NCBI GenBank assembly: GCA_050258555.1
Contig: JBLMZA010000094.1
Coordinates: 19,563-83,562 of the forward strand
Reading direction: 5' to 3'
DNA: 64,000 nt
Source: Acidobacteriota bacterium
GTDB lineage: Bacteria; Bacteroidota; Ignavibacteria; UBA10030; UBA8401
Position numbers and translations under genes: made by a program. The notes under the pieces were generated by a model that was not told the DNA's origin, did not search any database, and saw only the letters and a program-made list of their open reading frames with translations. Position 1 is the stretch's first letter. Each line of letters opens with the position of its first letter. Of the stretch, positions 39,493-56,603 are shown piece after piece.

Positions 39493-40194
39493 TTATGCCG
39501 CGTGTTTGTTTTTCTGAAGGATGATGCAGAATGCCGCCGCCTCATCCGTTCCGATCCTGCCGAATGTGAGCGCGCTGAAGAGCCGGTCGACGGCGCTCCA
39601 GACGGCGTAGAACACGACGCGCCGCTTTTCCGGATGATCGAAGCCGAACGTCTTCGACGACACGACCGACATGCCATGCTTGCGCGCCAGGCGCTCGATG
39701 CGCTTCGGGGCAATCGCCCAGCGGTGAAATGTCACAAACGGATAATTCTCATCCTGTCCCGCCCAGTCGTATCCGGCGATCTTCCGGGCGTAGAAGACGT
39801 GGAACCAGTGCGGCGTGAATTTCGTGATGAGTCCCCGAAGCGTGAACACGTTCGGCGAAGCCATCAGGACGATGCCGCCTTCGTTGACGGTGCGGAAGAA
39901 GTTGATGAGCGCCTTCTCGGGCTCGGGCAGATGCTCGAGCACGTCCCAGCAGACGACCATGTCGTAGGCGTTCTCCGGAAGCCGGTAGGTCTGGATGTCA
40001 CCGACGATCTTCTCGTGCATGTGCGAGTTGCGCTCGAGCTGCTTCAGCGAAATGTCGATGCCGCTTAAGATCGTGCCTTCGGGAAATTGGATGTGGCTTG
40101 CGGAGCCGCAGCCCGCTTCGAGCACGCGCCGGGGATTGCGTCCCGCAAGCAACTGGTCGATGCGCTGTTCGAGTTCAGGGTTGCCTTCGTTCAT
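39493..40194 (-). CDS. class I SAM-dependent methyltransferase
   Basis: Motif I VLEAGCGSA, plus DMVVCWDVLEHL. The start was moved to the ATG at 40194. Confidence 0.7.
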   Translation of the reverse strand: MNEGNPELEQRIDQLLAGRNPRRVLEAGCGSASHIQFPEGTILSGIDISLKQLERNSHMHEKIVGDIQTYRLPENAYDMVVCWDVLEHLPEPEKALINFFRTVNEGGIVLMASPNVFTLRGLITKFTPHWFHVFYARKIAGYDWAGQDENYPFVTFHRWAIAPKRIERLARKHGMSVVSSKTFGFDHPEKRRVVFYAVWSAVDRLFSALTFGRIGTDEAAAFCIILQKNKHAA

Positions 40195-41771
40195 GAGCGT
40201 GTATCCTTTCGTCGGTTGAAAAATGAGTGAACGGTTGTATGCACTTTCTCCTTGGACCACCGGTCGAGAATCTGGATCACTCCCATGAGCGTGCCGAGCA
40301 CGATCATATTGCGGCTGAATGTGAGCTGCATATCGACATAGGAGACGACCATCTGGTTGATGACCGAGATGACGCACATGGCCGAGACGGCCTTCAGGTA
40401 CGGATCATCCATCCGGTGAAAGACAATCGAGCCCTGCGCCACGAGCGCATTGAAGAAAAACCAGAAGAAAAATCCGCCGACGGCCCCCGATTTCACGAAG
40501 ATCCAGAAAATCTGGTTGTGCGGAATGTATTCCGAGAGCGGGAAATCCCCACCCCACGGCCTGAGCGGACGGTCATAGGCCTGGCCGAAGCCGATGCCGC
40601 TGAAGGGCGCGCGGCGGAATGTGACGGCGAGATTGTAATTCTCGGCTTTCCGGTACATCGTCGATTCGACATCCTTGCCGCCTCTGACGCCGGGCTCATC
40701 CATCACGGTGGACTTGAACTGCTGGGCCACATAGCCCAGGCGGCTGTAGCTGTTCCAGAACGCGGCCGTGTAGAGTGAAAAGAGCACGAGAAAGAGCGCC
40801 AGAAACTTCACTGCCGCACGAAGCGGCCCGGAGGGAAGCAGAAACAGCACGCCGACGGCCGAAGCCATTCCGGAGGCGTATGTGGCCCGGCGCTGTCCGG
40901 CAATGAATCCGACAACCAGCGGCAGGAATGCGGCCAGGAGCGCCGTTTTCTGGCGGCTCTTCACTCCCAGCACGAGGAATGTGCCCAGAAGAATGAAAAG
41001 CAGCACCATGAAGAGCGGATCCTCGTGATTGGTGAATGTCTCGATGATCGCAGGCCAGACGCCGAATGAGAAACCGTTTGCGGCATAGTAGGCGGCGCCC
41101 TGGACGGCCTTGATCGTGATGCCCGCAATCAGGACGCCCACGAGCACTTCAAGCTGTGAGCGCGTGCGGATCACCTGCGGCGTGAACCAATAGAGAATCG
41201 CCAGATACAGAAGCGCCCGCACTTCCCAGACGACGACGATCGGATCGGCGCCCGAGGCCAGACCGTGCACGGAGGCCGCAAGAAGCGATGCGAAGCCGAG
41301 CACGGCCGGCACCTTCATGGGAACCGGCATGAAGCCGTATTCGGGATCGACTGCCGCGCGCACCGCCCAGACAAGCACGACGAATGCGATGTGCAGCTCC
41401 ATGAGCGAGACGATCATATAGCGCGGCATGCCGGGAATGAGATTGATGTTGGCGAAATAATTCGCGGCGCCGGTGAAGGGCATGACGTACTTCACGCTGT
41501 GCTGATCGAAAAAGAGCACCGCAAAAATCACGATGTAGAATCCCCACTCGATGCGGAAGAGTGTGAGCGAGAGCACCGCATAGACAAGCACGAGGGCCGC
41601 GCCGGCGGCGACATTGCCGTCTGTCACGATCAGCGTCACGGCAAGCAGGCACGAGAGCACGAGCGAGAGCGCGAGCCAGAGCGAATGCACGAGCCGCTCG
41701 GCGCGCGCATTGGGCGAAAGAAGCCGCCCTGCGGCAATCGAAGAGGAAGATGTCAGTGTGCCTGATGCCAT
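40191..41771 (-). CDS. O-antigen ligase/polymerase family membrane protein (Wzy-like)
   Basis: About 10-12 transmembrane helices with a large periplasmic loop in the Wzy_C position. It lies between the flippase and PCP genes. The track start at 41813 is TTG; the first ATG is at 41771. Confidence 0.55.
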   Translation of the reverse strand: MASGTLTSSSSIAAGRLLSPNARAERLVHSLWLALSLVLSCLLAVTLIVTDGNVAAGAALVLVYAVLSLTLFRIEWGFYIVIFAVLFFDQHSVKYVMPFTGAANYFANINLIPGMPRYMIVSLMELHIAFVVLVWAVRAAVDPEYGFMPVPMKVPAVLGFASLLAASVHGLASGADPIVVVWEVRALLYLAILYWFTPQVIRTRSQLEVLVGVLIAGITIKAVQGAAYYAANGFSFGVWPAIIETFTNHEDPLFMVLLFILLGTFLVLGVKSRQKTALLAAFLPLVVGFIAGQRRATYASGMASAVGVLFLLPSGPLRAAVKFLALFLVLFSLYTAAFWNSYSRLGYVAQQFKSTVMDEPGVRGGKDVESTMYRKAENYNLAVTFRRAPFSGIGFGQAYDRPLRPWGGDFPLSEYIPHNQIFWIFVKSGAVGGFFFWFFFNALVAQGSIVFHRMDDPYLKAVSAMCVISVINQMVVSYVDMQLTFSRNMIVLGTLMGVIQILDRWSKEKVHTTVHSFFNRRKDTRS

Positions 41772-41809
41772 ACGAGTATGAGAGTTCCTGTCGTTTAACA
41801 GTGTGCCGG

Positions 41810-41977
41810 TCAAAAGCCCGGCGGCTTTTCCATCATGTAGAATGCCGTGATGAAGACGGCGAGCTGCGCCAGCGTCAGCAGCGTGACGATCATATATTCC
41901 TTCATGCCCATGTGCGTGCTGCGCTTTCCGATGAAGATGCCGAATGCCATGAGCATCACGACCGCAAGAATCGTCAT
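41810..41977 (-). CDS. small 55-aa two-helix membrane protein (not in ORF track; below size cutoff)
   Basis: The ATG at 41977 is preceded by a strong SD GAGGAGG with an 8-nt spacer. The product MTILAVVMLMAFGIFIGKRSTHMGMKEYMIVTLLTLAQLAVFITAFYMMEKPPGF has two hydrophobic helices. The stop is TGA at 41810-41812. It sits between the BY-kinase-like and Wzy-like genes on the operon strand. Confidence 0.35.
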   Translation of the reverse strand: MTILAVVMLMAFGIFIGKRSTHMGMKEYMIVTLLTLAQLAVFITAFYMMEKPPGF

Positions 41978-42004
41978 GTGTGCCGCCTCCTCGAGAAAAA
42001 ACGT

Positions 42005-42826
42005 CTATAACAGATTATGCTTATCCACGCGGTTGAAGACGAATCCGAGCACCTGGCTCTCGTTGAGCGTCGAAAGAAGCCGCTCGACTTCCCGCTCCTT
42101 CGTCTTGCCGGCGTTGACCACGACGATCACGCCGCCGAGCGCGGAGGTGAAGAGCGTCGGTATGGCCGATTCGGTGATCGAGGGAAGATCGACGATCACA
42201 AGCTCGTACGCGTTCTCGAGCGAGAAGAGCACGTTGCGGAATTCCGTCAGCTGCTCGAGGCCCACCGTCGGCTTCAGCGCCTGGGGTGAGGCCGACTTCA
42301 TGCTGTTGATGCGCATCGATTCAAGCGCGTTGTCGGCCGCGCTTCCTGCCGAGAGCACATGCAGATGGTTGATGCGCGTTTTGGCCACGGTGATCTTCGG
42401 CTGATAGAGACTCTCCAGCAGCCCCGGCGCCAGCGGCGTGCCGAAGATCTCGTGGCACTTCGGGCGGCGGATGTTGAGATCGATGAGGAGCGTTTCGCGC
42501 TGATTGGCCATGGCCAGCGATGCGGCCAGATTGGCCGCCACGAGCGTCTTGCCTTCCCCGGGATTGGGACTGGTGATGCCGATCGTCAGCTTCCCGTGCG
42601 AATATTCCTTCGGCAGAAGCGAATACTTGAAGTGATCGTAGAACTGATGATTCACCGTCGAGGCGTCGATCTTGCGCCCGGTGACATGGGAATACACAAT
42701 GGACTTTTCCAGACGCACCAGGCTCCGCGGAATCGCTTCGGCTTCCGCGGCCGGGTTCTCCTCGAAAGCCGCTTCGGACGCAGTCCCTTCGGGCTGTATG
42801 TAGGCATCGAATGGTTTCATGGACAT
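42005..42826 (-). CDS. BY-kinase-like P-loop ATPase (CpsD/Wzc C-terminal domain homolog) lacking a C-terminal tyrosine cluster
   Basis: Walker A ITSPNPGEGKTLVAANLAASLA, Walker A' LLIDLNIRRP and Walker B LVIVDLPS are present. The C-terminus ...NRVDKHNLL has no Tyr residues. Confidence 0.7.
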   Translation of the reverse strand: MSMKPFDAYIQPEGTASEAAFEENPAAEAEAIPRSLVRLEKSIVYSHVTGRKIDASTVNHQFYDHFKYSLLPKEYSHGKLTIGITSPNPGEGKTLVAANLAASLAMANQRETLLIDLNIRRPKCHEIFGTPLAPGLLESLYQPKITVAKTRINHLHVLSAGSAADNALESMRINSMKSASPQALKPTVGLEQLTEFRNVLFSLENAYELVIVDLPSITESAIPTLFTSALGGVIVVVNAGKTKEREVERLLSTLNESQVLGFVFNRVDKHNLL

Positions 42827-42842
42827 GGATTCTCTTTCCTTC

Positions 42843-44252
42843 TCATTCTTTCAGGCGCGAGCGTTCGGGCAGAAACGCGATAATGGGCTTCTGATAGATC
42901 TCGATGGCGCGCGTTGTGCGGATCGTCGTATCAAAGAGTTCGGATAAAATCGCCGTGATGATTCCCAGCAGCAGTCCAAGGCCGACTCCGCCGCCCACAA
43001 TGAGCGCCCGGCTCGGCTTCGAGGGCTGCAGCGGAAGAAGCGGCGGGTCGATGATCGTGAACTGATTGTTGGCCGACTTGCCGATGGCCTGCTGTATCTG
43101 CGCCTCTTCAAGCTTCACCTTCATGCCGTCATAGAGCCGCTGGTAGACGGCGACATCGGACTCTTTTTCCTGTCCCGATGTGCGCGAGGCCCCCAAAATC
43201 TCGCTCATCATCTGCGTGCGCGTGCGGCGCAGATCGGCGGTATGGTTGTCCTGTTTCGCGATTTCCGTCTGCAGTCCGCCGATCATGCGCTCGAGCATTT
43301 CCATGATCGAGGCCTGGACTTTCGCCACTTCCGGATGCTGCATCGTGTAGCGCTCGAGTGCGTCGTCATGCCGCGTGACAAGCGTGCGCAGCTCGCCCGC
43401 ATACGGGATGTCGAGCCTGGAGAGTTCGAAAAGCGTCTGGCGAGCGGACTTCGAGCCCAGGTCTTCGGGCAGCTCGCGGATCATCGCAAGGTCGTGCTTC
43501 AATTCCTTCGTGCGTCCGTCGCTTTCCCGCATCTGGCGCTCGACGTCGTTCAGATAGGCGTTCGCTCCCGGAGTGTCCTGCATCCGGTCGCGCAGTTTCG
43601 GCATCAATTGCTCCTGGCTCTGCTCGAGCTTCTGCCGGAATTCCTCGAGCTTCTGCTCATAGAAGCGCACGGTCACTTCATTGCGCTGATTGTTCGCGAG
43701 CGAGGTGGCCTGGATGAAGAGATCGGCCAGGACCGCTGCGCCGCGCTGCGCGCGGGCAGGATCGTTGTCGGCATAGACGATCGAAAATGATTCGCGCGCC
43801 TGGCGCTGAATCTTGATATTGGACGTGCGGTCATCCACCAGTTTGCGCCGGGAGCGTTCGCTCAGGTTCCGGTATTCGACGCCCAGACTGTCCATGAGCA
43901 TCTCGATTGTCTTGCGGCTGAAGATGATCTCATCGATGAAGCGCAGCGGATCATCCTCCATCTGGTAGACGGGAGCGGCCGATGTCATGCCGCTGATCGG
44001 ATTGGCCACTTCATTGCGCTGCACGAGAATCGACGTCGAGGATTCATACATCCTGGGCAGCTGGAATGCGGCGCCGACGGCGAGCGCCGTCACGACAAGC
44101 GGCGGAATCACCAGAAGCTTGATGCGCCGCCGGATGAGTCCGGAAATGTCACGAAGCGAAAACTGGGATGTCTGCACGATGGATTGTTCCTTTGCGAATA
44201 AATTCTTTTGTATGGCTGCGTTGTGTGAAGACAGTACGCCCAACCTGACCAC
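42843..44252 (-). CDS. polysaccharide co-polymerase (PCP; Wzz/GumC/Wzc N-terminal periplasmic domain) protein
   Basis: N-terminal transmembrane helix (LLVIPPLVVTALAVGAAF), a long coiled-coil periplasmic region, and a C-terminal transmembrane helix (ALIVGGGVGLGLLLGIITAIL). The start is GTG or TTG and is uncertain. Confidence 0.7.
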   Translation of the reverse strand: MVRLGVLSSHNAAIQKNLFAKEQSIVQTSQFSLRDISGLIRRRIKLLVIPPLVVTALAVGAAFQLPRMYESSTSILVQRNEVANPISGMTSAAPVYQMEDDPLRFIDEIIFSRKTIEMLMDSLGVEYRNLSERSRRKLVDDRTSNIKIQRQARESFSIVYADNDPARAQRGAAVLADLFIQATSLANNQRNEVTVRFYEQKLEEFRQKLEQSQEQLMPKLRDRMQDTPGANAYLNDVERQMRESDGRTKELKHDLAMIRELPEDLGSKSARQTLFELSRLDIPYAGELRTLVTRHDDALERYTMQHPEVAKVQASIMEMLERMIGGLQTEIAKQDNHTADLRRTRTQMMSEILGASRTSGQEKESDVAVYQRLYDGMKVKLEEAQIQQAIGKSANNQFTIIDPPLLPLQPSKPSRALIVGGGVGLGLLLGIITAILSELFDTTIRTTRAIEIYQKPIIAFLPERSRLKE

Positions 44253-44541
44253 TGTCGTTCAATTAGTATGCCAAAGCGCGGAAGGACGCCGGCGCTCGTG
44301 AATTCACGGGAAATGCGCGGATCATCATCGGCACGCATGCCGTGATGTGTGTAAAAAGGAAGCAGCTTCGTGCGGCGCGTGTGTAGAATCGGGACAGACC
44401 GGGCCTGCGCACGGCGCCGAAAGCACGGAAGCCGGGCCGGAAATCTGTTTGGCACATTTCTTGAACAGCTTCAGTCATGTGCTTCAAGCCACCGCCATCG
44501 ATGTTTCTCTCACTCATGTGTTTTTTTAGAAAGGTGCGAGC

Positions 44542-45252
44542 GTGCAACAGTATCGACAGTCTCTGCGTACGGCAATCTTCATGCTTCTTCTGGCGCTGTT
44601 CCTGACCGGCTGCTTCAGCCGCAGCGCGGTGCAGGATGAAGCCCTGTTGAAGGCGAATCAATCGCAGTCCGCCAATATCCTCTCCGGCTCCTATGTGCTC
44701 AGGCAGGGAGACCAGGTGAAGCTCTGGGTGATCGAGTATCCCGAATTTGATACGACGGCCGTGATCAGCGAGACGGGCACGATTCCGGTGAAACTGCTCG
44801 GCGAGGTGCATCTGGAGGGATTGACCAAAAACGAGGCGATCGCCATGCTGCGCGAGCGCATCGGCGTCTATGCCCGCAGCCGCAGCCTGAGCCTGGGGAT
44901 GACCGTGCTGACCGGGACGAGCGCGAAGCTCGTCATTCTGGGCGCTGTGGCGCGACAAGATACATTCGCGCTCACATCTCCCATTTCGCTGCTTGAGGCG
45001 ATTGCCGCCTCGGGCGGCACGCAGCCCGATTCCGATCTCCGGCGCATCAAGGTCTTCCGGCGTGATTCGGATGCGGGCCCGGTCGAGGTCGATCTGACGC
45101 GCTATTTTGCCACGGGCAATATTCGGGAAGTGCCCACCATCGGTCCCGGCGACATTGTGTATGTGCCGCGGGAGGAGAATTTCATCCGCGAGTTTTCGGG
45201 ATATCTGCGCGATACGCTTTTCCTCTTCGGGTTATTTTCGATTTCGCGCTAG
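44542..45252 (+). CDS. short Wza-like outer-membrane polysaccharide export (OPX) lipoprotein lacking the C-terminal OM-spanning helix
   Basis: Lipobox LTGC. Poly_export motif YVLRQGDQVKLWV. SLBB-like segment PGDIVYVP. Only 236 aa (E. coli Wza is 379 aa). GTG start at 44542 with an AAAGG RBS. Confidence 0.7.
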   Translation: MQQYRQSLRTAIFMLLLALFLTGCFSRSAVQDEALLKANQSQSANILSGSYVLRQGDQVKLWVIEYPEFDTTAVISETGTIPVKLLGEVHLEGLTKNEAIAMLRERIGVYARSRSLSLGMTVLTGTSAKLVILGAVARQDTFALTSPISLLEAIAASGGTQPDSDLRRIKVFRRDSDAGPVEVDLTRYFATGNIREVPTIGPGDIVYVPREENFIREFSGYLRDTLFLFGLFSISR

Positions 45253-45285
45253 CGCGTGTGTATGCGGACGACAGGAGAACAATCA

Positions 45286-46236
45286 ATGTATTCGAAGCTC
45301 AGACCATTCATGCGACTGCGGTGTTCAATCAGACAGGCGGCAATGCTCCTGTGTATCTCATGGTGTGTAAATTTGCTCCATGCGCAGGAAGCCTCCGAGC
45401 TCTCATTCCGCTACGGGCTGGCGTCGGCGCGCAGCGTCGCGCTCGGAGAAGCCCTGGTGGCCGATACGCGCGATCTTTCAAGCGCGATCGCCAATCCCGC
45501 CAGTCTGCTCTTTCTGGAGCGCCTTTCGGTCTCCGCCACCGCCGGCATGAGGACCGATAACCGATCGCTGCGTTCGGCCGTCTCGATGCCGATAGCGGCC
45601 ACAGACCGCTTTGTGCTGGCCATTGGAGGCGAGGGGGCATTTTTCGATGCCGATGACTGGTCGGCGCAGAAAGGGAAGATGGCGGGCTTTGAAGCGTCCT
45701 CTGCCGTGCGGCTCTTCGGAGCATTCAGCTTCGGCATGATCTATGACTTCCGCTACACCGAATTCGGCGCCACGCGCCTTTCCAGCCACTCGGGCGGCAT
45801 GGGACTGATGTATTCGGTCCTTCCTGCGCTTTCCTACGGGGTTTCATTCACGGGATTCGGCTCGGGCATCCAATTGAAGCGCGCCGCGGACGGCGCTCCC
45901 TTCCTGGTGAAGGAATCGAATATCCCGCGCTCGGTCACATTCGGCGCGTCGTGGCGATATCCGGCCACGTATGGAAGGAAACTCGTTGAAGTGCATCTCT
46001 CGAACCAGAGCATCAGCGGGGTGGAGCGCCTGGTCTACCGCCTTGGCGCCGAATTTTTCCCGTGGAAATTTCTTGTCGTGCGCGGAGGCATCGTCTCCGG
46101 ACCCGTGACGGCCATGGGCCGCGCGGGCATCGGCATACACACGGGCGTCGTTGATATCGATTACGGTGTGGCCTCCAGCACGGCCGCCGAGCGTCTGCAT
46201 GTGCTGAGCATTGTTGTACCGCTGGAATTCCCTTGA
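45286..46236 (+). CDS. FadL/PorV-like outer-membrane beta-barrel protein (candidate polysaccharide-export porin)
   Basis: Signal peptide. The N-terminus ...ALGEALVADTRDLSSAIANPASLLF has a hatch-like NPA motif, and the sequence shows the amphipathic beta-strand pattern. It is a paralog of 12412..13422 (shared RAG..G..AG.GI...DY...H.LS..V C-terminus). The ATG at 45286 has a GGAGA RBS. Confidence 0.5.
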   Translation: MYSKLRPFMRLRCSIRQAAMLLCISWCVNLLHAQEASELSFRYGLASARSVALGEALVADTRDLSSAIANPASLLFLERLSVSATAGMRTDNRSLRSAVSMPIAATDRFVLAIGGEGAFFDADDWSAQKGKMAGFEASSAVRLFGAFSFGMIYDFRYTEFGATRLSSHSGGMGLMYSVLPALSYGVSFTGFGSGIQLKRAADGAPFLVKESNIPRSVTFGASWRYPATYGRKLVEVHLSNQSISGVERLVYRLGAEFFPWKFLVVRGGIVSGPVTAMGRAGIGIHTGVVDIDYGVASSTAAERLHVLSIVVPLEFP

Positions 46237-46275
46237 ACGAGCGACATTCACTCTACGCCACTATATCCGGCACTT

Positions 46276-47070
46276 ATGGAATCCATACATTCAATCGTCG
46301 ATCAGGATCTTGATATCGTCCGCAGCGCCGCCATGCAGGAAGTGCTCAGGACGATGGAACGCATTGCAGCCAGCGACCTTTCCGTCATCATCGTCGGAGA
46401 ACAGGGAACAGGAAAGGAGTGGGCCGCGCGCTTCATTCACCGCATCAGCAGCCGCGCGCACGGACCGTTTTTGCCGTTCGATTGCGGTGCGCTCTCGGCC
46501 GAAGCGATGGAAAAGGAACTCTTCGGGTACGAGGCCGTCACGCGCGATGGCGTGATCTACCGGCGCGGCGCCTTGGAGGAAGCCGACGGCGGCACGCTGC
46601 TCGTCAATGAGCTCTCCTCGCTGCCCCTGCCGGCACAGATGAAGATGGCCCGCGCGCTCGAATACCAGACCATGACGCGCGTGGGGGGCGATGCGATCAT
46701 ACACATCCATACGCGCATCATCGGAACGCTCTCGCGCCACCCGGAAGCGCTCATGGAAGAAGGCGCGCTCATGAAGGACATGTATTACCGCATCAGTCCG
46801 ATCGTCATCGAACTGCCGGCCCTCAGGGACCGAAGAGAGGATATACCGCTTTTGATCAGAAAATTTTTGCGCGAACTGCGCACGCGCTACAATTCTCCGG
46901 TCGTGGGCATCGCGCCCGATGCCGCCGAGCTCTGCCAGGCCTACAACTGGCCCGGCAACATCCGGCATCTGAAAAATGCGATCGAATACGCCGCGGTGAT
47001 GTCGTCCGGAAAATGGATTGAAGCCGAGCATCTGCCGGCGTATCTGCGGCAGGCGAAAGACGGAGTTTAA
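46276..47070 (+). CDS. sigma-54-activator-like AAA+ protein, degenerate (no GAFTGA, Walker B D-to-N, no HTH, no receiver)
   Basis: Walker A GEQGTGKE. ELFGYEAVTRDG replaces ELFGHEKGAFTGA. GGTLLVNEL replaces GGTLFLDEI. PGNIRHL is retained. The protein ends at 264 aa with no Fis-type HTH. Confidence 0.6.
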   Translation: MESIHSIVDQDLDIVRSAAMQEVLRTMERIAASDLSVIIVGEQGTGKEWAARFIHRISSRAHGPFLPFDCGALSAEAMEKELFGYEAVTRDGVIYRRGALEEADGGTLLVNELSSLPLPAQMKMARALEYQTMTRVGGDAIIHIHTRIIGTLSRHPEALMEEGALMKDMYYRISPIVIELPALRDRREDIPLLIRKFLRELRTRYNSPVVGIAPDAAELCQAYNWPGNIRHLKNAIEYAAVMSSGKWIEAEHLPAYLRQAKDGV

Positions 47071-47106
47071 GAACATTCTAATCGAAATTAGAAACTTCTA
47101 ATTTGC
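47071..47106 (+). repeat. 36-bp AT-rich palindromic element, copy A (GAACATTCTAATCGAAATTAGAAACTTCTAATTTGC)
   Basis: Immediately after the stop of 46276..47070 and 172 nt upstream of the ATG at 47278. It contains the 18-bp perfect palindrome AATTAGAAACTTCTAATT. 34 of 36 positions match the reverse complement of copy B. Confidence 0.8.
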
Positions 47107-47130
47107 ATCGCCCGGGGAATTCGTCTAAGT

Positions 47131-47161
47131 TGGTGCTGTCGAAACATGTACGACAGCACCA
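47131..47161 (+). promoter_or_regulatory. perfect 11-bp inverted repeat TGGTGCTGTCG-N9-CGACAGCACCA (candidate operator/UAS)
   Basis: Arms at 47131-47141 and 47151-47161. It resembles the NtrC-type TGCACC/GGTGCA half-site logic. It lies 117 nt upstream of the wecA-like start. Confidence 0.4.
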
Positions 47162-47277
47162 TAGAGAATTCATGCGGCAGCGTCGGCAACCACCAGAAAG
47201 AGGCGACACGTCAAGGGCTTCTTTTTTTTCGCGTTCGGGGGGCGGGCTGTTGGTATCGTGTCAATGAGGAGGGTGTG

Positions 47278-49302
47278 ATGGTCATGCATTTGTTGATTGC
47301 CTTTGCGGCATCGGTTGTGATGTCGCTCGTGCTGACGCCGGCAGTGATGAAGCTTGCCTCGGCAGTCGGAGCGATGGATTATCCCAACGCGCGCAAGGTC
47401 CACACGACGGCGATGCCGAGGCTGGGCGGCGCCGCCATCTGCGCGAGCTTCTTCATTTCGTTTTTCGTGCTGGCGGTGATCGAGCCCGCGGTCTTCCTCG
47501 ACTCCTGGCTCTCGACGGCCGAAGGCATCTCGCTTGCCGCCGTGCTGCTTCTGGTGCTCTCGCTCGGCATCTGGGATGATATCGAGCCGCTCATGCCCTC
47601 GCAGAAATTCGTCGTGCAGCTGCTCTTGAGCACGATCATCTATCTGGCGGGATTCCGCATCTCCGTCATCAGCCTTCCTCTGGTGAGCGAGCCCGTGGCG
47701 GTCGGCTTCCTTGATTATCCGCTGACGATGATGTGGATGATCGGCATCACCAATGCCATCAATCTCATCGACGGGCTGGACGGCCTGGCCAGCGGCGTCT
47801 CCACCATCGCCTTTCTCACGGTCTTTCCCATTGCCATGTTCAATGGCGATATGGGCACCGCCTGCATGGCGCTTCTGCTTTCGGGCGCGCTTCTGGGCTT
47901 CCTGCGCTACAACTTCAATCCCGCGCGCATCTTCCTGGGCGACTCGGGAAGCCTCTTCCTGGGCTTTGCGCTGTCGGTGCTTTCCATACACAGTTCGACC
48001 AAGGGATCGGCCGCGTTCGCCATTGTCGTGCCGATTCTCGCGCTCGGACTGCCGATCATGGACACGTTCTTATCGATGGCGCGCCGGCTCCTGCGCTCGT
48101 TCCTTCCCGATCAGCCGAAGACCGAGTCGCTCGTGCATAAGCTGAAGTCGATGTTCCAGCCGGATAAAAGCCACATCCATCACCGCCTCATTGCGCGCGG
48201 ACTCTCGCACCGCAACGCCGTGCTGGTGCTCTACGCGATCTCGTGCGCGCTCGGACTGGGCGCCTTTTTGCTCACGGTCTCGAGCAGCCGCATTGCCGGC
48301 TTCGTGCTGGCGGCCGTCGGCGCCGCCACGGTGATCGGCGTGCGCCAGCTGCGCTACAAGGAGATGGCCGTGCTCCAGAACGGCGTCCTCCTTCCGCTCT
48401 ATGACAGGCCGATCATGAACCGGGAGGCGCTCCTGGTGTTTTTCGATGTGGCGTTCATCGTCGTCTCCTTCGGCGCTTCGAGCTATATTGCCGGAAAGCT
48501 CTATGCCATCCCGCAGTCCGACGCCGCGTTCATGGAACTGACGGCCGGCGTCACCATCGTGCAGCTGGCGATCTTCTGGGCCTCGGGCCTCTACCGCGGC
48601 ACATTCCGGCTCATCGGACTCGGCGATGTGCTCCGCACAATGAAAAGCACGTCGCTTGCCGCGCTTGGGACCGGCTTTGGCATCTGGATGCTGTCGGCGC
48701 CGCTGAGGGCCGATCAGGTGGTGATGCTGGTGCTCGATTTTTATTTCCTCATGACGTTCGTCGTGGGATTCCGCGTGTCGTTCCGCGTGCTGCAGTATCT
48801 GTCGCATCAGGATATCCGGGAAGGCCGCCATGTGCTGCTCTACGGCGCAGATCAGAGCGGCATCGTGACGCTCGAGCGGATTCTGGATTCGAATGCGACG
48901 ACCGATACGCCGATCGGATTTCTGGATGATGACACGACGCTCGAGGGCAAATCGCTCAACGGGTATCCGATCTTCGGAGGCCATTGGAAGCTCCCGTATC
49001 TCATGCGCACCATCGGCGTCGATGAGATCGTGCTGTGCTCCGATTCGATCAAGGAGGAGTCGCTCCGGCGGCTTCGCGCCGCGGCCGGAGAATACCGCAT
49101 TCCGATCAAGCGGCTTCGCATCCTGATCGAGGAATACCATGCCGAGGAGCGCAAAGGCGCGGTCGGGCAGACAGCCGCCATTGTGGTTGGTCCGGAGGCG
49201 GATGCGCGCGAGGACGAGGCGCATGCGGGCGTGACGGAGCAGCGGGTGCATCGGCTTGGAAAAGGCGTGAAGGTGCCGCACATGAAATCGAAATTCGCAT
49301 AG
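47278..49302 (+). CDS. polyprenyl-phosphate N-acetylhexosamine-1-phosphate transferase (WecA/MraY family) fused to a C-terminal 4TM + Rossmann-like (CoA_binding_3-type) module
   Basis: The WecA signatures NAINLIDGLDGLA and DKSHIHHRL are in the first ~350 aa. Four more transmembrane helices follow, then RHVLLYGADQSG...PIGFLDDD...GYPIFGG, which resembles the non-catalytic N-terminal module of WbaP/CapD-type proteins. The ATG at 47278 has a GGAGGG RBS. Confidence 0.65.
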   Translation: MVMHLLIAFAASVVMSLVLTPAVMKLASAVGAMDYPNARKVHTTAMPRLGGAAICASFFISFFVLAVIEPAVFLDSWLSTAEGISLAAVLLLVLSLGIWDDIEPLMPSQKFVVQLLLSTIIYLAGFRISVISLPLVSEPVAVGFLDYPLTMMWMIGITNAINLIDGLDGLASGVSTIAFLTVFPIAMFNGDMGTACMALLLSGALLGFLRYNFNPARIFLGDSGSLFLGFALSVLSIHSSTKGSAAFAIVVPILALGLPIMDTFLSMARRLLRSFLPDQPKTESLVHKLKSMFQPDKSHIHHRLIARGLSHRNAVLVLYAISCALGLGAFLLTVSSSRIAGFVLAAVGAATVIGVRQLRYKEMAVLQNGVLLPLYDRPIMNREALLVFFDVAFIVVSFGASSYIAGKLYAIPQSDAAFMELTAGVTIVQLAIFWASGLYRGTFRLIGLGDVLRTMKSTSLAALGTGFGIWMLSAPLRADQVVMLVLDFYFLMTFVVGFRVSFRVLQYLSHQDIREGRHVLLYGADQSGIVTLERILDSNATTDTPIGFLDDDTTLEGKSLNGYPIFGGHWKLPYLMRTIGVDEIVLCSDSIKEESLRRLRAAAGEYRIPIKRLRILIEEYHAEERKGAVGQTAAIVVGPEADAREDEAHAGVTEQRVHRLGKGVKVPHMKSKFA

Positions 49303-49303
49303 C

Positions 49304-51241
49304 ATGAACACCTTTAACACCATAGTGCTGCATGTGGCGGCCTTCTTTGCGCTGTGCGCGGCGCCGTTCGAGGTCTCCGCACAGGCACGCCCGATGTGGA
49401 TCACGGCCTATTATCCCTGGTGGTACTACAACCAGATGCCGGTCGAAGAGGTGGATTTCTCGCTCATGACGCATGTCGTGGTCTTCTCGGCCAATCCCTC
49501 GCGCACGCCGCCCTATCTTGACGTGCTTGTGAATGCACGCGACAGCGCCAATGTCGTCAACGGCGTCGACTGCGGACGTCCGGGCGATTATCTGCGGCAG
49601 CTTGTCCGGCGCGCGCACGAGAAGGGCGTCAAGGTCGTGCTCTCGGTGGGCGGCATCTGGGGGGAAGGCGCCGATGCCATGCATTACATCGCCGGCGATG
49701 ACGCGCGCATCGAGACATTCGTGCGCGCCTCGTGCGCGTTTGCCCGGCGCTGGAATCTGGACGGCATCGAACTCGACTGGGAATTTCCGCAGTTTGCCGA
49801 CAAGTGGCGCCACAACAAACTCATCTACCGCTTCCGCTCGGAACTCGATGGGTGGACTCCGCGCGGGATCTTCATCGCCGCCGTCCACGAGTCCCCGCTT
49901 CCGGCATACGACAAAAATGCGATGTGCGCGGCCTTCGACCAGATCAATCCGATGACCTATGAACTCTACCGGGGCGATTACTCCAAGAACCTCACCGGAT
50001 ACAACGGTCCCATCGAGCAGTCGTCGCGCTACGCGCCGTATATCGGCACCTCGATCAACCAGAAGGGACACGGTCCGCGCTCATGGATCGACGATGGCTA
50101 TCCGGCATCGAAGATCGGGCTGAGCGTCTCGTTTACGACGACCGTCTTCACGGGCGTCGAGCCTCCGGTCGAACCCTCGCGCCCCTACAAGGAACATCAA
50201 TGGGGCAATGTGCGCGACATTCCGCGGCGCGGCCGCCACTGGGATCACTCGTCACAGGTCCCATGGTTCGCCGACGGAACGACATTCATTTCCTATGAAG
50301 ACACGGCGAGCTCACGGCTCAAAGTCGAGTATGCCAGAGCGCTCGGTCTCGGCGGCGTCATGGTCTACGAACTCGGAGCGGGCTATCTTCCTTCCGAAAA
50401 ACCGGGCCGAAGGGACGTGCTGCTCCAGGCCGTTTCGCGCGCGGCACGCTCAACGACCCGGCCGCTCGGCGATCTCACGCCCAAGACCGCCGACCGCGAG
50501 GCGCCGAAGGTCTCGATCCTGTCTCCCAAAGACCGGGCGCGCGTCACCGGTCCGGTCACATTCAAAGCCGACGCGAAGGATAACCGCGGCGTTGCCGCGC
50601 TGCGTTTCTTCATAGACGGCGTCGCCTACGGATCCGTCTCTGAAGATGTGCCCGCGGTCTCGCCGCCTCTGAACACATGGAGACTCTCCAACGGCACGCA
50701 CACGATCCGCGCTGAGGCGGTCGATGATGCGAATAACAAGGGCAGTGCGCAGATCACGATCACAGTCGCCAATTCTGGCGCGCCGCCCTCGTTCGAGGAC
50801 CTCGTCGTGTATGACGAGAAACTCCGCGCTCCGTTTATCGATGCCTCCTGGGGCGTGAAGAATTCATTCGCCGATGTGTCGCATGCGCGGACGGGAAGCC
50901 GCGCCATCAAAGTCGAATACGGAGCGCACGGCGCGCTCTGGCTCCAGTATGGCGCCTGGGGAGAGGAACAGAAACTCTATCCGACCGACTATACCGAATT
51001 GGCGTTCGACGCCTTTCCTTCGGAATCGTTCACGCTCGAGATTGTCTTTTCCAACAACACGTCTGAGACGCTGAGGCTTGAAGCCGGAAAGTGGAATTCG
51101 TGCGCGGTGCCGGTCACGGGCTCCGGAGCGTTCACGAAATTCTACTTCCGGCGCGATCTTCCCGGCAGCGCGACCGTGTATTATGACAACATCCGGCTGA
51201 AAGCCGCTCAGCCGTTGACACATGCCGCACGGGGAAAATAA
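49304..51241 (+). CDS. secreted GH18-family protein with variant catalytic motif (DGIELDWE) plus Ig-like and C-terminal beta-sandwich domains
   Basis: Signal peptide. GH18 (beta/alpha)8 motifs SVGGIWG...LDGIELDWEFP...MTYELY. A Big-like segment follows, then a galactose-binding-like C-terminus. The start is 2 nt after the upstream stop. Confidence 0.7.
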   Translation: MNTFNTIVLHVAAFFALCAAPFEVSAQARPMWITAYYPWWYYNQMPVEEVDFSLMTHVVVFSANPSRTPPYLDVLVNARDSANVVNGVDCGRPGDYLRQLVRRAHEKGVKVVLSVGGIWGEGADAMHYIAGDDARIETFVRASCAFARRWNLDGIELDWEFPQFADKWRHNKLIYRFRSELDGWTPRGIFIAAVHESPLPAYDKNAMCAAFDQINPMTYELYRGDYSKNLTGYNGPIEQSSRYAPYIGTSINQKGHGPRSWIDDGYPASKIGLSVSFTTTVFTGVEPPVEPSRPYKEHQWGNVRDIPRRGRHWDHSSQVPWFADGTTFISYEDTASSRLKVEYARALGLGGVMVYELGAGYLPSEKPGRRDVLLQAVSRAARSTTRPLGDLTPKTADREAPKVSILSPKDRARVTGPVTFKADAKDNRGVAALRFFIDGVAYGSVSEDVPAVSPPLNTWRLSNGTHTIRAEAVDDANNKGSAQITITVANSGAPPSFEDLVVYDEKLRAPFIDASWGVKNSFADVSHARTGSRAIKVEYGAHGALWLQYGAWGEEQKLYPTDYTELAFDAFPSESFTLEIVFSNNTSETLRLEAGKWNSCAVPVTGSGAFTKFYFRRDLPGSATVYYDNIRLKAAQPLTHAARGK

Positions 51242-51263
51242 TCATGTTCAGAAAGGATATGCC

Positions 51264-53579
51264 GTGACAGTGTTGCGCCCCCGCGTTCTGACCCTGCTGA
51301 TGTGTACCCTCTGCCTGCTGCCGCAACCGGAGACGCTTTCGGCCGAGGGCAAATGGTTTACCACGTATTATTCGACCTGGTCGATGATGCCTTTGGGCAC
51401 ATCCGAACTCGCGCTGCCGCCGTGGGAAATCGACTGGACGGGGCTCACGCATGTCGTGCTCTTTGATAACGGCAATGTGACGAAGTCTCCGCCCTATTGG
51501 GCGTACATGTTCGGTCCGCCTCCGAAGCGTCCTTCGGATACGGAATCCGATTCGGTCTCGGTCGAGTTCAACGGCGTCGCTTTCCCCGGAAGCGGCGCGG
51601 TGCATTATATGGACTCGCTTGTGGCGATCGCGCACCGGCGCGGGGTGAAGGTCGTGATCACGATCCAGGCTGTGAATCCCGTCAACCTGAATTACGTCGC
51701 GGCGGATTCGCTCCGCACGGAAGTGTTCGTCAATACGGTCGCCTCCTGGGCCGAGCGCAAAGGCTTCGACGGCGTCGAGCTTGATTGGGAAGGGTGGGCT
51801 TCGCCGCTGCCTCCGGCCTCGACGGTGAACCGCTTTGTGCGCATGCTCTACCGGCGCATCCATTCGATGAAAACCCGATCGGGCGCGCCCGGGCTGATCA
51901 TGATTTCCGCCGGAAGCGGCCATGAGGACCTCTATGATCCGTCGCAGGACTTTATGGTCGACCAGTTCAACCTTCAGCTCTATGATTATTCCTATGCCTG
52001 GTATGCGAAGATCGGATCGAACGCCTCATGGTATCTGGCGCCGCTGCACAGAGGCACGGTCGATCCGACATTCGAGGGACAGGCCTACGACACGCGCGGC
52101 CCGCTGCAGTGGGTGGCGGCGGGACATGACGCGAAAAGGATCGGCCTCGGCGTTCCGATCTTCGGAACGATCCTCAGGAATGTGGACGGGCTCTTTCAGA
52201 AGATGGCGTCCGACGGCGATTACGGCAATGCGCACTATCAGACCGTGGAAGCGCTGAAGGAAATCGGCGGCGTCGAGGAATGGGATGATGCGCGCAAGGT
52301 GCATTCGATACGCGGCACGGCGCTGCGCTCGAACGGGCGCCCGGTCTATTATCAGTCGGACGGAGTGAATGCCGGACAAAAATTCTTTGCATCGGGCGAG
52401 ACGCCCATGAGCCTGCGCGAGAAGATCAGCTGGATGAACCAGAATAATTTCGGCGGCATCATGACGTATGAGTTCGTCTCGGACCTCGACTGGAGGCAGA
52501 CGCTCGCCTCGGGAAAACGGCATCCGCTGCACCGCGTGATCGCATCGTCGCTGAGTTCGGGACCGCAGCATGTTCCGCCCTCGGGCGTGATCGAGGCGCT
52601 TCCGGCGCATCTTCCGTCCTCGGGCGGCGAGGTGACGCTGAAGTGGAATTCCACTGATGCCGTCTCGGCTGCGATCGATCAGGGGGTGGGCGTTGTCGCA
52701 CTCAACGGGTCGCGCACCGTCAGCGTCACGCAGACGACGACGTTCACGCTCATGCTTGCCGGTGGCGCAGGCGCGTCTGCGCGTGCTAGCGCTGCCGTGA
52801 CCGTCAGTGCGCCTCCTCCGGTCGGCATGCTGCGCTGCGAGCCCGCCGCGCTTTCGGCGGGAGGCGGGAAGGTGACGCTCGTATGGACATCGACCGACGC
52901 CGTGCGGGCGTCGATCGATCACGGGATCGGCGACGTGGCGGTGAACGGATCTCTTTCCGTTTCCGTAAAGTCGTCGACCGACTTCACGCTCACGCTCGCG
53001 AATGCGGACGGCATGACGAGCCAATACCGCGCCTCGGTGCGTGTCGACACGATCGCCGTCCATACCGTCGGGCTTCTTCGCGGATGGAACATGATCTCCA
53101 GTTATGTGCTGCCGGACAGCGTGCAGCTCGCGCGCATCGGCATGGAGCTGGACAGCACACAGTGTGTGCTCAAGGACGGTCAAGGCGGCGTCTATTGGCC
53201 GCGCTATGCAATCAATACGCTCGGCTCCTGGGATCCGCGCAAAGGCTATCTTTTTTTTACGGAGACCGACCGCCAGCTGAAGCTGAGCGGGACGCTCATC
53301 GATCCGGTCTCGCATCCGCTGGCGCTCTCGCGCGGCATGAACATGGTGCCGTATCTGAAGAGAACTCCGATGGATGCGCTGTCAGCCTTCGGCATGCTCT
53401 CCGACTCTCTCATCATCGTTTCCGATATGCGCGGACGGCTCTATTGGCCGTCGAAGAAGATCTTCACGCTCGAGACGCTCATGCCGGGTGAGGCCTATCT
53501 TGTCTATGTCTCGGCGCCGGCCACGTTTATCTATCCGGAAGACGCGCTGCCTTCGGCATCGGTCGGGAGGGAGCGATAA
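51264..53579 (+). CDS. secreted GH18-family protein with variant catalytic motif (DGVELDWE), two tandem Ig-like repeats and a C-terminal domain
   Basis: GTG at 51264 with an AAAGGA RBS gives the signal peptide VTVLRPRVLTLLMCTLCLL. The protein repeats ...GGEVTLKWNSTDAVSAAIDQGVG...NGS.TVSV...TFTL (about aa 430-560). Confidence 0.7.
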   Translation: MTVLRPRVLTLLMCTLCLLPQPETLSAEGKWFTTYYSTWSMMPLGTSELALPPWEIDWTGLTHVVLFDNGNVTKSPPYWAYMFGPPPKRPSDTESDSVSVEFNGVAFPGSGAVHYMDSLVAIAHRRGVKVVITIQAVNPVNLNYVAADSLRTEVFVNTVASWAERKGFDGVELDWEGWASPLPPASTVNRFVRMLYRRIHSMKTRSGAPGLIMISAGSGHEDLYDPSQDFMVDQFNLQLYDYSYAWYAKIGSNASWYLAPLHRGTVDPTFEGQAYDTRGPLQWVAAGHDAKRIGLGVPIFGTILRNVDGLFQKMASDGDYGNAHYQTVEALKEIGGVEEWDDARKVHSIRGTALRSNGRPVYYQSDGVNAGQKFFASGETPMSLREKISWMNQNNFGGIMTYEFVSDLDWRQTLASGKRHPLHRVIASSLSSGPQHVPPSGVIEALPAHLPSSGGEVTLKWNSTDAVSAAIDQGVGVVALNGSRTVSVTQTTTFTLMLAGGAGASARASAAVTVSAPPPVGMLRCEPAALSAGGGKVTLVWTSTDAVRASIDHGIGDVAVNGSLSVSVKSSTDFTLTLANADGMTSQYRASVRVDTIAVHTVGLLRGWNMISSYVLPDSVQLARIGMELDSTQCVLKDGQGGVYWPRYAINTLGSWDPRKGYLFFTETDRQLKLSGTLIDPVSHPLALSRGMNMVPYLKRTPMDALSAFGMLSDSLIIVSDMRGRLYWPSKKIFTLETLMPGEAYLVYVSAPATFIYPEDALPSASVGRER

Positions 53580-53580
53580 G

Positions 53581-54615
53581 ATGAAGATGACTGTGCAGTT
53601 AATCGTGCTGGCCGCGGCGGCCGCGTTTTCCGGGGCGGAGGTCATCGCGCAGACGGCGCACTATTCCTTCGCGAAGAATACGGGACTCTATGCGACGGTG
53701 GCCATTCCTGCTTCGATCGCGCCCACATGCGACGGCATGCCGCTTGCGATCGGAGACGAGATCGGCGTCTTCACGGCATCGGGCGTCTGCGCCGGCGCGT
53801 CGGTCTGGACCGGTTTGAATATCGCGCTCAATGTCTGGCCGGACGACCCCTATACGCCGGCTGTCGACGGCATGCAGGCGGGGGAAGAGATGGCATACCG
53901 CATCTGGCGGAAGGGCTCCAATACGGAATACCCGATCGCGCAGGCTTCGTATCAATCGGGAGGCGGCGCGTTTTCGTTCAACGGATTGTATGTGCTGGCG
54001 TCGCTCGCGGCGTACTCCTCCGTGCTGCCGAATGCGCCCACGCTGCGTTCGCCCGCAGACGGGGCGACGGGCGTGCCGCTCACGGCGGTGCTCCAATGGG
54101 ATGCGGTCGATGGCGCGACGGAGTATCTCGTGCATCTTTCAGCAGACTCGGCCTTTGCATCGCTGCTCGATCCGGCTATCGTGTCTGAGACGCAGAAGCG
54201 CACGCCGCCGCTTCAATCCGGATCCACGTATTACTGGCGCGTAAGAAGCGGAAATATGGCCGGTGTGAGCGCATTTTCAGGCACCTTCAGGTTTTCAACG
54301 CTGACGGTGACCGGACTCTCGGACGAGGATCGGGCGACGAGGCGTCAGGCACGCGAATTCCGGCTCGAGCAGAATTATCCCAATCCCTTCAATCCGGAAA
54401 CGCAGATCGCGTTTTCCCTTCCGCGGAGCGTGCAGGCGAAGCTTTCCATTTATGACGTGCTGGGGCGCGAAGTGGCGGTGCTCATCGATGCGCGGCTCGA
54501 TGCGGGATGGTATACGATCGGGTGGAATGCCTCCGGGCGCGCAAGCGGGGTCTACCTCTGCAGGCTCCGCGCCGGCACATACACCTCCGTGCGCATGATG
54601 ATGCTCGCGCGGTAG
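53581..54615 (+). CDS. secreted FN3-like protein with T9SS C-terminal sorting domain
   Basis: The ATG at 53581 has a GGGAGGGAG RBS. Signal peptide. The FN3-like segment is PNAPTLRSPADGATGVP...YYWRVRS. The C-terminus FRLEQNYPNPFNPETQIAFSLP...GVYLCRL...MMMLAR is Por_Secre_tail-like. Confidence 0.6.
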   Translation: MKMTVQLIVLAAAAAFSGAEVIAQTAHYSFAKNTGLYATVAIPASIAPTCDGMPLAIGDEIGVFTASGVCAGASVWTGLNIALNVWPDDPYTPAVDGMQAGEEMAYRIWRKGSNTEYPIAQASYQSGGGAFSFNGLYVLASLAAYSSVLPNAPTLRSPADGATGVPLTAVLQWDAVDGATEYLVHLSADSAFASLLDPAIVSETQKRTPPLQSGSTYYWRVRSGNMAGVSAFSGTFRFSTLTVTGLSDEDRATRRQAREFRLEQNYPNPFNPETQIAFSLPRSVQAKLSIYDVLGREVAVLIDARLDAGWYTIGWNASGRASGVYLCRLRAGTYTSVRMMMLAR

Positions 54616-55691: not shown

Positions 55692-55761
55692 ATATCCGGA
55701 ACCTGGTTTCAAGAAACATGTGTATACGGCGCGCGCTGCTCGGCCCTGTGAACGACGGCTC

Positions 55762-56496
55762 TTAGTGATCCATCGCCTCGGTATGCTCGCGCTGTATGGA
55801 TTTGATCTTGTTCTGCATTTCCTCTTCGATTGTGCGCGTATCCCCTGCTCTCTTGAAGCGTTCCACCATCACATTCGACAACTCGATGAGAGACCTGCTG
55901 ACTAAAGAAATGAGATTGTATTCCTGTTTCAGTTCGCTGTTGGCTTTCTCCAGATAGGCTCTGCCTTCTTCATTGCTGATGAAGCCCTGGAGCTCGTGCG
56001 TGCGCTCGTCGATGTTGAGCGAGATGACCGAAAGGTTCGTGTTGACGATGTGCGCAATCGATGTGACCGTATCGCGCAGCATCTCCAGCGAGGGGATCTG
56101 CCTGTCCTTCTCCCTGCGAAAGAGCGAGCGCTCATAGACGCCCTCGATCACCACCGGCAAGTGGGCTTCGCTGAAGGAATCCTTGCGCACGTAATCGTAG
56201 GCGCCGAGCGTGAGCGCCTCGAGCGCCGATGCTTCCATCTCCGGGCGGTTCACCAGAAGCACCACGGGCACATCGGCCATGCGCTCCTGCATCCACTCGA
56301 AGAGGCTCATGCCGTTGCCGGCGGCCATGGAGTGATCCAGAAGCACGACATCGGCGTGCGTCTCCGGCAGCAGTGCGAGCGCTTCGGCGCCCGACGTGCA
56401 GAGCTCGACACGGTAACCCTTGGTTGTGAGTGCGTGCTGACAGTGCCGGCGAAACTCTTCGTCGTCATCGATCAGCAGCACATGGAGTGACGGCAT
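55762..56496 (-). CDS. response regulator: receiver domain plus uncharacterized ~110-aa C-terminal helical domain
   Basis: Receiver: HVLLIDDDEEF...DVVLLDHSM...VVLLVN...KDSF. No recognised output domain can be identified in the C-terminal part. Confidence 0.65.
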   Translation of the reverse strand: MPSLHVLLIDDDEEFRRHCQHALTTKGYRVELCTSGAEALALLPETHADVVLLDHSMAAGNGMSLFEWMQERMADVPVVLLVNRPEMEASALEALTLGAYDYVRKDSFSEAHLPVVIEGVYERSLFRREKDRQIPSLEMLRDTVTSIAHIVNTNLSVISLNIDERTHELQGFISNEEGRAYLEKANSELKQEYNLISLVSRSLIELSNVMVERFKRAGDTRTIEEEMQNKIKSIQREHTEAMDH

Positions 56497-56546
56497 CCAG
56501 TATTCCCTTTATCTACATGAAATGATAACGAGAATCGGACGGCCAG

Positions 56547-56582: not shown

Positions 56583-56603
56583 TAAACATGAAGAGGGGAA
56601 GGG

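Follow-up and report, generated by a model that had tools for sequence, protein, structure and literature searches.

A conserved AAA+-only relative of sigma-54 activators, without GAFTGA and the Walker B aspartate, encoded in a predicted polysaccharide export operon

The DNA analysed here (the window: 64,000 nucleotides of contig JBLMZA010000094.1, positions 19,563 to 83,562, numbered from its own first letter) carries between about 21 kb and 55 kb a Wzx/Wzy-type polysaccharide cluster, as identified with Pfam. Within this cluster lies the subject of this report, an open reading frame (ORF) at 46276 to 47070 on the plus strand that encodes a 264-aa protein related to the central AAA+ domain of bacterial enhancer-binding proteins (bEBPs), the activators that work with sigma-54. 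The ORF reads as genuine in the sequence, and its product has been deposited identically as MGE5314920.1 and is present on seven contigs. A first-pass annotation had described it as a truncated, degenerate bEBP-like protein that might modulate an intact activator in trans, encoded downstream of exopolysaccharide (EPS) export genes; Pfam bears out the position relative to the export genes. The gene and its motifs are:

46276 to 47070, plus strand: AAA+-only, GAFTGA-less, Walker-B-degenerate bEBP paralog (ORF, Pfam, family of 65 clusters, AlphaFold2 model)
46396 to 46419, plus strand: Walker A motif GEQGTGKE, residues 41–48 (sequence)
46516 to 46554, plus strand: loop 1 (L1) hairpin ELFGYEAVTRDGV, one residue shorter than its canonical counterpart ELFGHEKGAFTGA
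46588 to 46614, plus strand: Walker B motif GGTLLVNEL, in which N111 replaces the Mg-coordinating Asp of canonical GGTLFLDEI
46789 to 46791, plus strand: R172 of "YYR", a putative trans-acting arginine finger, retained (Arg in 50/51 family members)
46951 to 46971, plus strand: sensor II motif PGNIRHL including R230 (G227 and N228 invariant, R230 in 47/51)

Residues 15–178 match Sigma54_activat (E = 2.9e-43) and residues 184–262 match AAA_lid_14 (E = 8.7e-27), and the same Pfam scan detected neither HTH_8, the helix-turn-helix (HTH) domain, nor any N-terminal or receiver domain, in agreement with the first-pass annotation. Matches to NCBIfam were all partial, covering the central region of named activators, and fell far under the cut-off of each model. 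The AlphaFold2 (AF2) model built from the family alignment has a pLDDT of 90.8 and a pTM of 0.84, and the structures closest to it are the AAA+ domains of FleQ, ZraR and NtrC1 (TM 0.86–0.87). In fold and clade the protein is a bEBP AAA+ domain, and Pfam and structure leave no room for placing it in a different AAA+ clade.

We read the motifs off the sequence and off residue-by-residue alignments to the solved FlrA, ZraR, NtrC1 and FleQ domains. Walker A and sensor II are retained, GAFTGA is lost and asparagine stands for aspartate in Walker B, all as first described. The tip of L1 reads AVTRDG, with a one-residue deletion, where canonical proteins have GAFTGA, and the beta-hairpin that carries it is retained in the AF2 model (E84–89/E92–97), where it is modelled with high confidence. 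Sensor I is GTLS in place of the canonical AATN, and the canonical FREDLYYR is represented by MKDMYYR, in which the first arginine has become lysine and the second (R172) is kept. Compared with a functional sigma-54 activator, the protein has the core and lid, Walker A, R172 and R230, and is missing the GAFTGA Phe-Thr pair, the hhhhDE of Walker B and the C-terminal HTH_8; the last of these, which binds the upstream activating sequence (UAS), is usual in bEBPs but not universal. Binding of cyclic di-GMP (c-di-GMP) in the manner of FleQ was considered and rejected. The FleQ site is formed by R144, R185, N186, E330 and R334 (PMC8335546), which align to D11, R52, F53, K196 and E200 of the target, leaving one of five residues conserved (R52, the equivalent of R185).

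A homolog search found 64 further clusters at 90% identity, giving a family of 65 clusters whose members are 239–303 aa long and all consist of AAA+ core and lid only, with the HTH absent. Identity to the target ranges from 44 to 85% over 51 aligned members, on which the per-residue counts given here rest. Below the family, the homolog list switches abruptly to full-length receiver (REC)-AAA-HTH proteins of about 45% identity or less, and a neighbour-joining tree built on the AAA+ core sets all 65 family sequences apart, as a single clade, from the 56 closest canonical bEBPs. The Phe-Thr pair occurs in 0/65 family sequences and 56/56 canonical neighbours, and the Walker B DE pair in 8/65 and 56/56, respectively. 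Most often the family has NE at this position (37/65), and the remaining 20 carry other non-acidic pairs, including NH, KG, RS and SG. In Walker A, on the other hand, each of G44, T45, G46 and K47 is found in 50/51 members and G41, E42 and E48 are invariant, while the upstream arginine of FREDLYYR is lysine or variable across the family. Taken together with R172 and R230 (counts above), the alignment indicates that selection has been asymmetric: the nucleotide-binding and trans-acting arginine residues are maintained while the cis-catalytic residues drift.

Other positions are held in common as well. The lost loop has a replacement motif of its own, (A/S)-(I/L/V)-(T/S)-(W/R)-(E/D/N)-G, with G92 in 48/51 members and Trp or Arg at the tip in 41/51; W49, right after Walker A, is found in 47/51 and C70 in 50/51. 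There are 20 invariant columns, and all members terminate at the same place. On these sequence comparisons the family is conserved, monophyletic and evidently under selection, so "truncated", with the decay it implies, is not an apt description. Nor does a frameshift or assembly error fit an identical protein on seven contigs and 65 clusters of 239–303 aa. The family is small, since about 14 single-domain clusters of 260–300 aa (at 50% clustering) stand above the canonical plateau in a profile search of a representative library. Its named members all come from uncultured metagenome-assembled genomes (MAGs) labelled Bacteroidota, or Acidobacteriota, the label of the window's source, and a scan of GTDB species genomes with the target protein returned canonical bEBPs only, at 44% identity or less, and no family members.

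Three observations belong beside the family. The top ranks of the representative-library search went to multi-domain proteins, in which several AAA+ stretches add up; those with the highest scores against the family profile (P0121–P0138) are 500–1000 aa long and carry bEBP-type AAA+ stretches in tandem, two or three per protein. They could be fusions made in gene calling or genuine proteins of this build. The label of the source MAG is Acidobacteriota, while its relatives, its type IX secretion system (T9SS) sorting domains and its PorV-like proteins point to Bacteroidota. The public names of the family members P0002–P0065 are "DNA-binding NtrC family response regulator", "two-component response regulator HydG" and "sigma 54-interacting transcriptional regulator". 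A family named in this way, with no DNA-binding and no receiver domain, inflates the counts of sigma-54 activators in such genomes.

The genes and promoter-like sites upstream of the AAA+-only gene are:

40191 to 44252, minus strand: divergent operon of a Wzz/GNVR co-polymerase, an ATPase resembling bacterial tyrosine kinases (BY-kinases), a 55-aa membrane peptide and a Wzy polymerase (Pfam, NCBIfam)
44259 to 44273, minus strand: divergent sigma-54-type promoter TGGCATACTAATTGA facing the Wzz/GNVR gene (motif match)
44450 to 44464, plus strand: sigma-54-type promoter TGGCACATTTCTTGA, 78 nt 5′ of the Poly_export gene, predicted start of the export operon that ends with the AAA+-only gene
44542 to 45252, plus strand: class-3-type outer-membrane polysaccharide export (OPX) protein of 236 aa, Poly_export and SLBB only (Pfam; class per PMC9603273)
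45256 to 46236, plus strand: putative outer-membrane beta-barrel partner, listed ORF of 326 aa (weakly PorV/PorQ-like)

We compared ten loci, namely the window and nine relatives with family members down to 44% identity. In 10/10 the AAA+-only gene lies directly 3′ of a gene for a putative outer-membrane barrel of about 305 aa, and in 9/10 a short Poly_export/SLBB gene comes just before the barrel gene. The class-3 OPX architecture is paired with a beta-barrel porin in Myxococcus (PMC9603273). The barrel gene of the window belongs to no Pfam family and matches NCBIfam PorV_fam over nearly its full length (E = 1.4e-7) without reaching the cut-off of that model; its orthologs in L001, L003, L004, L006, L007 and L008 are 26–56% identical. 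The gene order of the divergent Wzz/BY-kinase/peptide/Wzy operon is repeated in related loci.

The sigma-54-type sites recur with the genes. Equivalents of the plus-strand site are found in L001, L003, L004, L006, L007, L008 and L022, which with the window makes eight loci, and the minus-strand site is conserved in L001, L003, L004, L006, L007 and L023. Over eight loci, 11 of 13 strict TGGCAY-N5-TTGH matches are concentrated in 2% of the sequence, the divergent regulatory region, and each faces the flanking gene; the binomial P of about 1e-17 overstates independence, as the pattern was picked after the window site and the loci are related. L008 is rearranged, and there a separate AGGCACAAGAATTGA lies about 70 nt 5′ of the barrel/AAA+-only pair. 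Scans of 44200–47400 found no terminator-like site above background between the OPX, barrel and AAA+-only genes and no sigma-70 site above background. Conserved synteny, the promoters and the lack of an intervening terminator-like site mark the AAA+-only gene as the final one in what is predicted to be a sigma-54-dependent operon for export. No rpoN gene lies in the window, where Pfam searches of 40 other long ORFs gave EPS, glycosidase, TonB-receptor and two-component genes only; this negative result covers the window and not the rest of the genome.

Between the two divergent promoters lie the repeats GTGTGTAAAAAGG (44347–44359) and GTGTGTAGAATCGG (44379–44391), which also occur in the intergenic regions of L001, L022 and L007 with a core, GTGTAAAA, common to the four loci; they are a candidate enhancer (UAS) for the canonical activator described next. 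The minus-strand promoter ends 7 nt from the GTG listed as the Wzz/GNVR start (44252), and this listed start is probably too far upstream.

A canonical activator is encoded further along the cluster:

54654 to 55712, minus strand: canonical bEBP without a sensory domain, with AAA+ (EAFTGA, DE), lid and HTH_8; candidate partner (Pfam)

The first-pass annotation had placed this intact activator at 54654–55691; it is canonical by Pfam, but the listed ORF extends to 55712, with 55691 as its first ATG. It shares 37% identity with the target and lies, together with a stand-alone receiver gene, 7.6 kb downstream of it. The activator/receiver pair has the same relative position in L001, and in L008, despite the rearrangement, it stands immediately beside the AAA+-only gene, with the activators 62.5% identical.

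A regulatory role of the AAA+-only protein in trans appears plausible, given the sigma-54-type promoters on its own and the divergent operon, the recurrent ortholog of the activator nearby and the precedent of FleT (below). The asymmetric retention of residues is what would be expected of a subunit that assembles around a nucleotide and serves its neighbour's active site without hydrolysing or engaging sigma-54 itself. From this we infer, tentatively and with somewhat less than even confidence, a non-catalytic, DNA-free, bEBP-derived subunit that joins a canonical activator in mixed assemblies and exerts feedback on EPS transcription. With Walker A and sensor II conserved, the protein would probably still bind ATP, and with the Walker B aspartate lost it probably could not hydrolyse it on its own. 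It would probably donate a trans-acting arginine to the neighbouring subunit, and would be unable to engage sigma-54 through a canonical L1 loop. It might then enter mixed rings with a canonical enhancer-binding protein, for which the activator at 54654–55712 is the best candidate. Such rings would alter the output of the activator at EPS promoters, most probably by damping it, to a degree that would follow the expression level of the export machinery, which could in this way feed back on its own transcription.

The first-pass annotation had likened the protein to HrpV-type arrangements. HrpV is not an AAA+ protein, and FleT and VpsR, which are the closest known proteins, fit better as analogues. 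FleT, from Rhodobacter (Cereibacter) sphaeroides, has no N-terminal domain and no HTH, is encoded in a FleQ- and sigma-54-dependent operon and forms hetero-oligomers with FleQ (PMC10084136, PMC7277832). The target likewise is a central AAA+ domain only, with its gene in a predicted sigma-54 operon. However, FleT is regarded as a functional sigma-54 activator (class Ic of Francke et al.), whereas the target has no Phe-Thr pair, a shorter loop, Asn for Asp, and an altered sensor I and first arginine, and the fleT operon is flagellar while that of the target is for EPS export. VpsR of Vibrio cholerae controls exopolysaccharide genes and has ND for DE in Walker B (PMC6158489), sharing with the target an asparagine at the position of the Walker B aspartate. 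Like the target, the atypical enhancer-binding proteins VpsR, TyrR, PhhR, HupR, NtrX and HsfA have a bEBP-type AAA+ domain without GAFTGA, but they keep a DNA-binding domain and act at sigma-70 promoters, whereas the target has no such domain and its operon has sigma-54-type promoters. The target also shows no specific affinity to VpsR (E = 4.8e-40 vs. 1.6e-55 for FlrA). FleQ, which responds to c-di-GMP and governs Pel/Psl, is another bEBP AAA+ protein that controls polysaccharide genes (TM 0.87 to the target), but its GAFTGA, DE, HTH and c-di-GMP site are not conserved in the target.

Mixing of subunits has its own precedents. In HrpR/HrpS and RedR1/RedR2, rings are built from paralogous AAA+ subunits, and one that is inactive can lower the activity of the whole ring, which is the likeness we propose for the target; inactive forms of RedR inhibit active ones through hetero-oligomers, and heterohexamers of PspF L1 variants and the wild type form with about 55% activity (PMC3467059). 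In both pairs, though, the partners are close paralogs that have GAFTGA, ATPase motifs and an HTH, which sets them apart from a target and candidate partner of 37% identity.

Among the bEBP-like proteins that we found described, those without GAFTGA all bind DNA, and the DNA-free ones (FleT, FlgR and CtcC) retain sigma-54 contact. In the literature searched we found no description of a conserved family in which four losses come together (sensory domain, DNA-binding domain, catalytic acid and sigma-54 loop), yet the nucleotide-binding and arginine-finger residues are kept; a search for natural dominant-negative bEBPs likewise gave nothing equivalent. If mixed rings do form, the protein would be a naturally evolved counterpart of the PspF "doped hexamer" experiments and a built-in governor by which sigma-54-driven EPS transcription is tied to how much export machinery is made, in poorly known, uncultured Bacteroidota-like bacteria.

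Several points weigh against the mixed-ring proposal. Contact between the target and the activator is itself proposed from sequence and context, and at just 37% identity the compatibility of the two in one ring is not guaranteed. The tightest association of the target is with the outer-membrane export gene pair (10/10 loci) rather than with an intact activator (3/10), although the latter count, of canonical AAA+-HTH activators within 10 kb, includes several contigs that end early. A reverse scan of metagenome contigs with the activator found no family member in 80 loci, which were mostly ~50%-identical non-orthologs on short contigs. The conserved replacement loop, (T/S)-(W/R)-(E/D)-G with its near-invariant G92, hints at a positive new binding function over simple loss, and hydrolysis may persist in some members, as 8/65 have DE. 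The data do not fix the direction of the effect, which could be that of a brake or of a co-activator.

These points bear on how else the protein might act. It could be a nucleotide-sensing adaptor that works after transcription, an exapted core whose remodelled L1 hairpin binds a cytoplasmic portion of an assembly component, either the priming glycosyltransferase or the co-polymerase/BY-kinase pair, so that ATP or another nucleotide gates polymer synthesis or export. We think this unlikely, with the following in its favour: the association that is conserved most strongly joins the gene to export and assembly genes and not to a transcription factor, the conservation of the new loop motif suggests a new partner, and Walker A is retained while the hydrolysis residues drift. 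A bEBP-type AAA+ domain acting outside transcription is not known, however, and the products of the adjacent genes are periplasmic or outer-membrane and out of reach of a cytoplasmic protein, which makes co-expression the likelier reason for the genes lying side by side. Nor does the c-di-GMP site of FleQ, with R52 as its single conserved residue, offer any help. The more specific version, an exapted, ATP-bound, non-hydrolysing ring whose hairpin docks on the cytoplasmic Wzx/Wzy machinery and directly gates synthesis or export, strikes us as doubtful. Homo-oligomers might instead dock on the sigma-54 holoenzyme or on promoter DNA without remodelling it and act as a decoy that blocks true activators. 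The hairpin scaffold is retained in the AF2 model, its tip bears Trp or Arg in most members, and ATP-locked Walker B variants of bEBPs (PspF E108, NtrC1 E239) trap sigma-54 complexes, which counts in favour of a decoy. Yet the Phe-Thr pair that makes the contact with sigma-54 region I is absent from all members, the loop is shorter and there is no DNA-binding domain to concentrate the protein at promoters, and we consider a decoy very unlikely.

A different reading keeps the mixed ring and reverses its sign: the target would be an obligate, FleT-like positive co-activator, the mixed ring being the active species at some promoters and ATP-locked subunits stabilising it. The arginine finger is retained, the position in the operon would yield a feed-forward switch, and in the FleQ/FleT precedent fleT likewise lies in a sigma-54-dependent operon. 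But Francke et al. grouped FleT with the enhancer-binding proteins that pass the GAFTGA filter (PMC3162934), whereas the target is degenerate in Walker B as well as at the L1 tip, and engineered mixtures of that kind lower output; obligate co-activation seems improbable to us. From the absence of several canonical motifs and both flanking domains one might suspect the remains of a decaying pseudogene, or a full-length activator cut short by a frameshift or an error of assembly. This is effectively refuted by the exact protein on seven contigs, by 65 clusters with a common end point, invariant columns and a conserved replacement motif, by the very confident AF2 model, and by the conserved regulatory element and next gene that come immediately after the stop codon. 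A mixed ring, most probably a damping one, remains the reading that we prefer, at the tentative level given above.

The features that follow the AAA+-only gene, with the second copy of the regulatory element, are:

47067 to 47112, plus strand: 46-nt element, copy A, overlapping the stop codon of the AAA+-only gene, 5′ of the priming glycosyltransferase gene
47278 to 49302, plus strand: WecA-like priming glycosyltransferase, Glycos_transf_4 and CoA_binding_3 (Pfam, NCBIfam)
55762 to 56496, minus strand: stand-alone receiver protein, REC and a 135-aa helical tail, first gene of the REC-bEBP operon (Pfam; L008 ortholog)
56541 to 56586, minus strand: 46-nt element, copy B, inverted, 5′ of the REC-bEBP operon (89% match to copy A)

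The repeat that adjoins the AAA+-only gene had been reported as a 36-bp element; the repeat is real, but it spans 46 nt. The element is made up of a pair of TTAGAA-N2-TTCTAA-type palindromes, spaced 21 bp from each other, with TAATTTG(C) after them, and all six TTCTAAT half-sites of the 64-kb window fall inside its two copies. The position of copy A is conserved in L001 (~8866–8910) and L022 (~10866–10910), and that of copy B 5′ of the REC gene in L008 (~13190–13240), where the priming glycosyltransferase and REC-activator genes form one operon behind a single element. Judged by its sequence and placement, the element looks like a shared operator and promoter, with the operator overlapping what we take to be a Bacteroidetes-type −7 box. 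As a sigma-54 promoter it was rejected, as there is no GG at −24.

The N-terminus of the priming glycosyltransferase aligns from ATG 47278 with its ortholog in L008 (53.5% identity), and by this alignment 47278 is probably the true start instead of the listed ATG 47146. A perfect 9-bp hairpin (47133–47159) spans the listed ATG, and with the later start the leader is about 175 nt long.

The C-terminal 137 aa of the stand-alone receiver gave no Pfam match even at E = 10; this tail contains an H-box-like stretch, SIAHIVNTNLSVI. A REC/multi-PAS/HisKA/HATPase hybrid kinase is encoded upstream of it (56604–59963, minus strand). Several unrelated metagenome loci (e.g., L088, 9584–10918) repeat this "split NtrC" arrangement, in which a REC-only gene stands directly 5′ of an AAA-HTH activator that has no sensory domain.

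In the divergent operon, the BY-kinase-like gene and Wzy are separated by a hydrophobic ORF of 55–60 aa, to which no family could be assigned; it is present in the window (41810–41977, minus strand) and in six relatives, and was not called in L003 or the P0037 locus. Its positions in the relatives are:

L001, 3212 to 3382
L004, 3300 to 3470
L006, 3653 to 3835
L007, 3486 to 3656
L022, 5617 to 5784
L023, 5348 to 5515

The BY-kinase-like ATPase (42005–42826, minus strand; 273 aa) has the XrtA-associated tyrosine autokinase as its best match, under the cut-off, with Walker A present and no obvious C-terminal tyrosine cluster. By analogy with EcpK, described as a pseudokinase in M. xanthus, it may be a pseudokinase too.

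Further from the AAA+-only gene, a second PorV-like outer-membrane gene (12373–13422, plus strand), also with a sub-threshold PorV match, follows a 734-aa ORF without a family and lies near a TonB-dependent receptor and a T9SS-tailed gene of glycoside hydrolase family 18 (GH18). Chitinase-like GH18 genes recur beside the EPS locus, in the window at 49304–53579 and 8722–10125 (both plus strand) and in L001, L008, L022 and the P0037 locus. The T9SS sorting domain is borne by the protein encoded at 8722–10125, and the pair at 49304–53579 is followed by a separate T9SS-tailed protein (53374–54615). Together with the WecA-like priming enzyme, the GH18 genes hint at an N-acetylglucosamine-containing polymer that is trimmed extracellularly.

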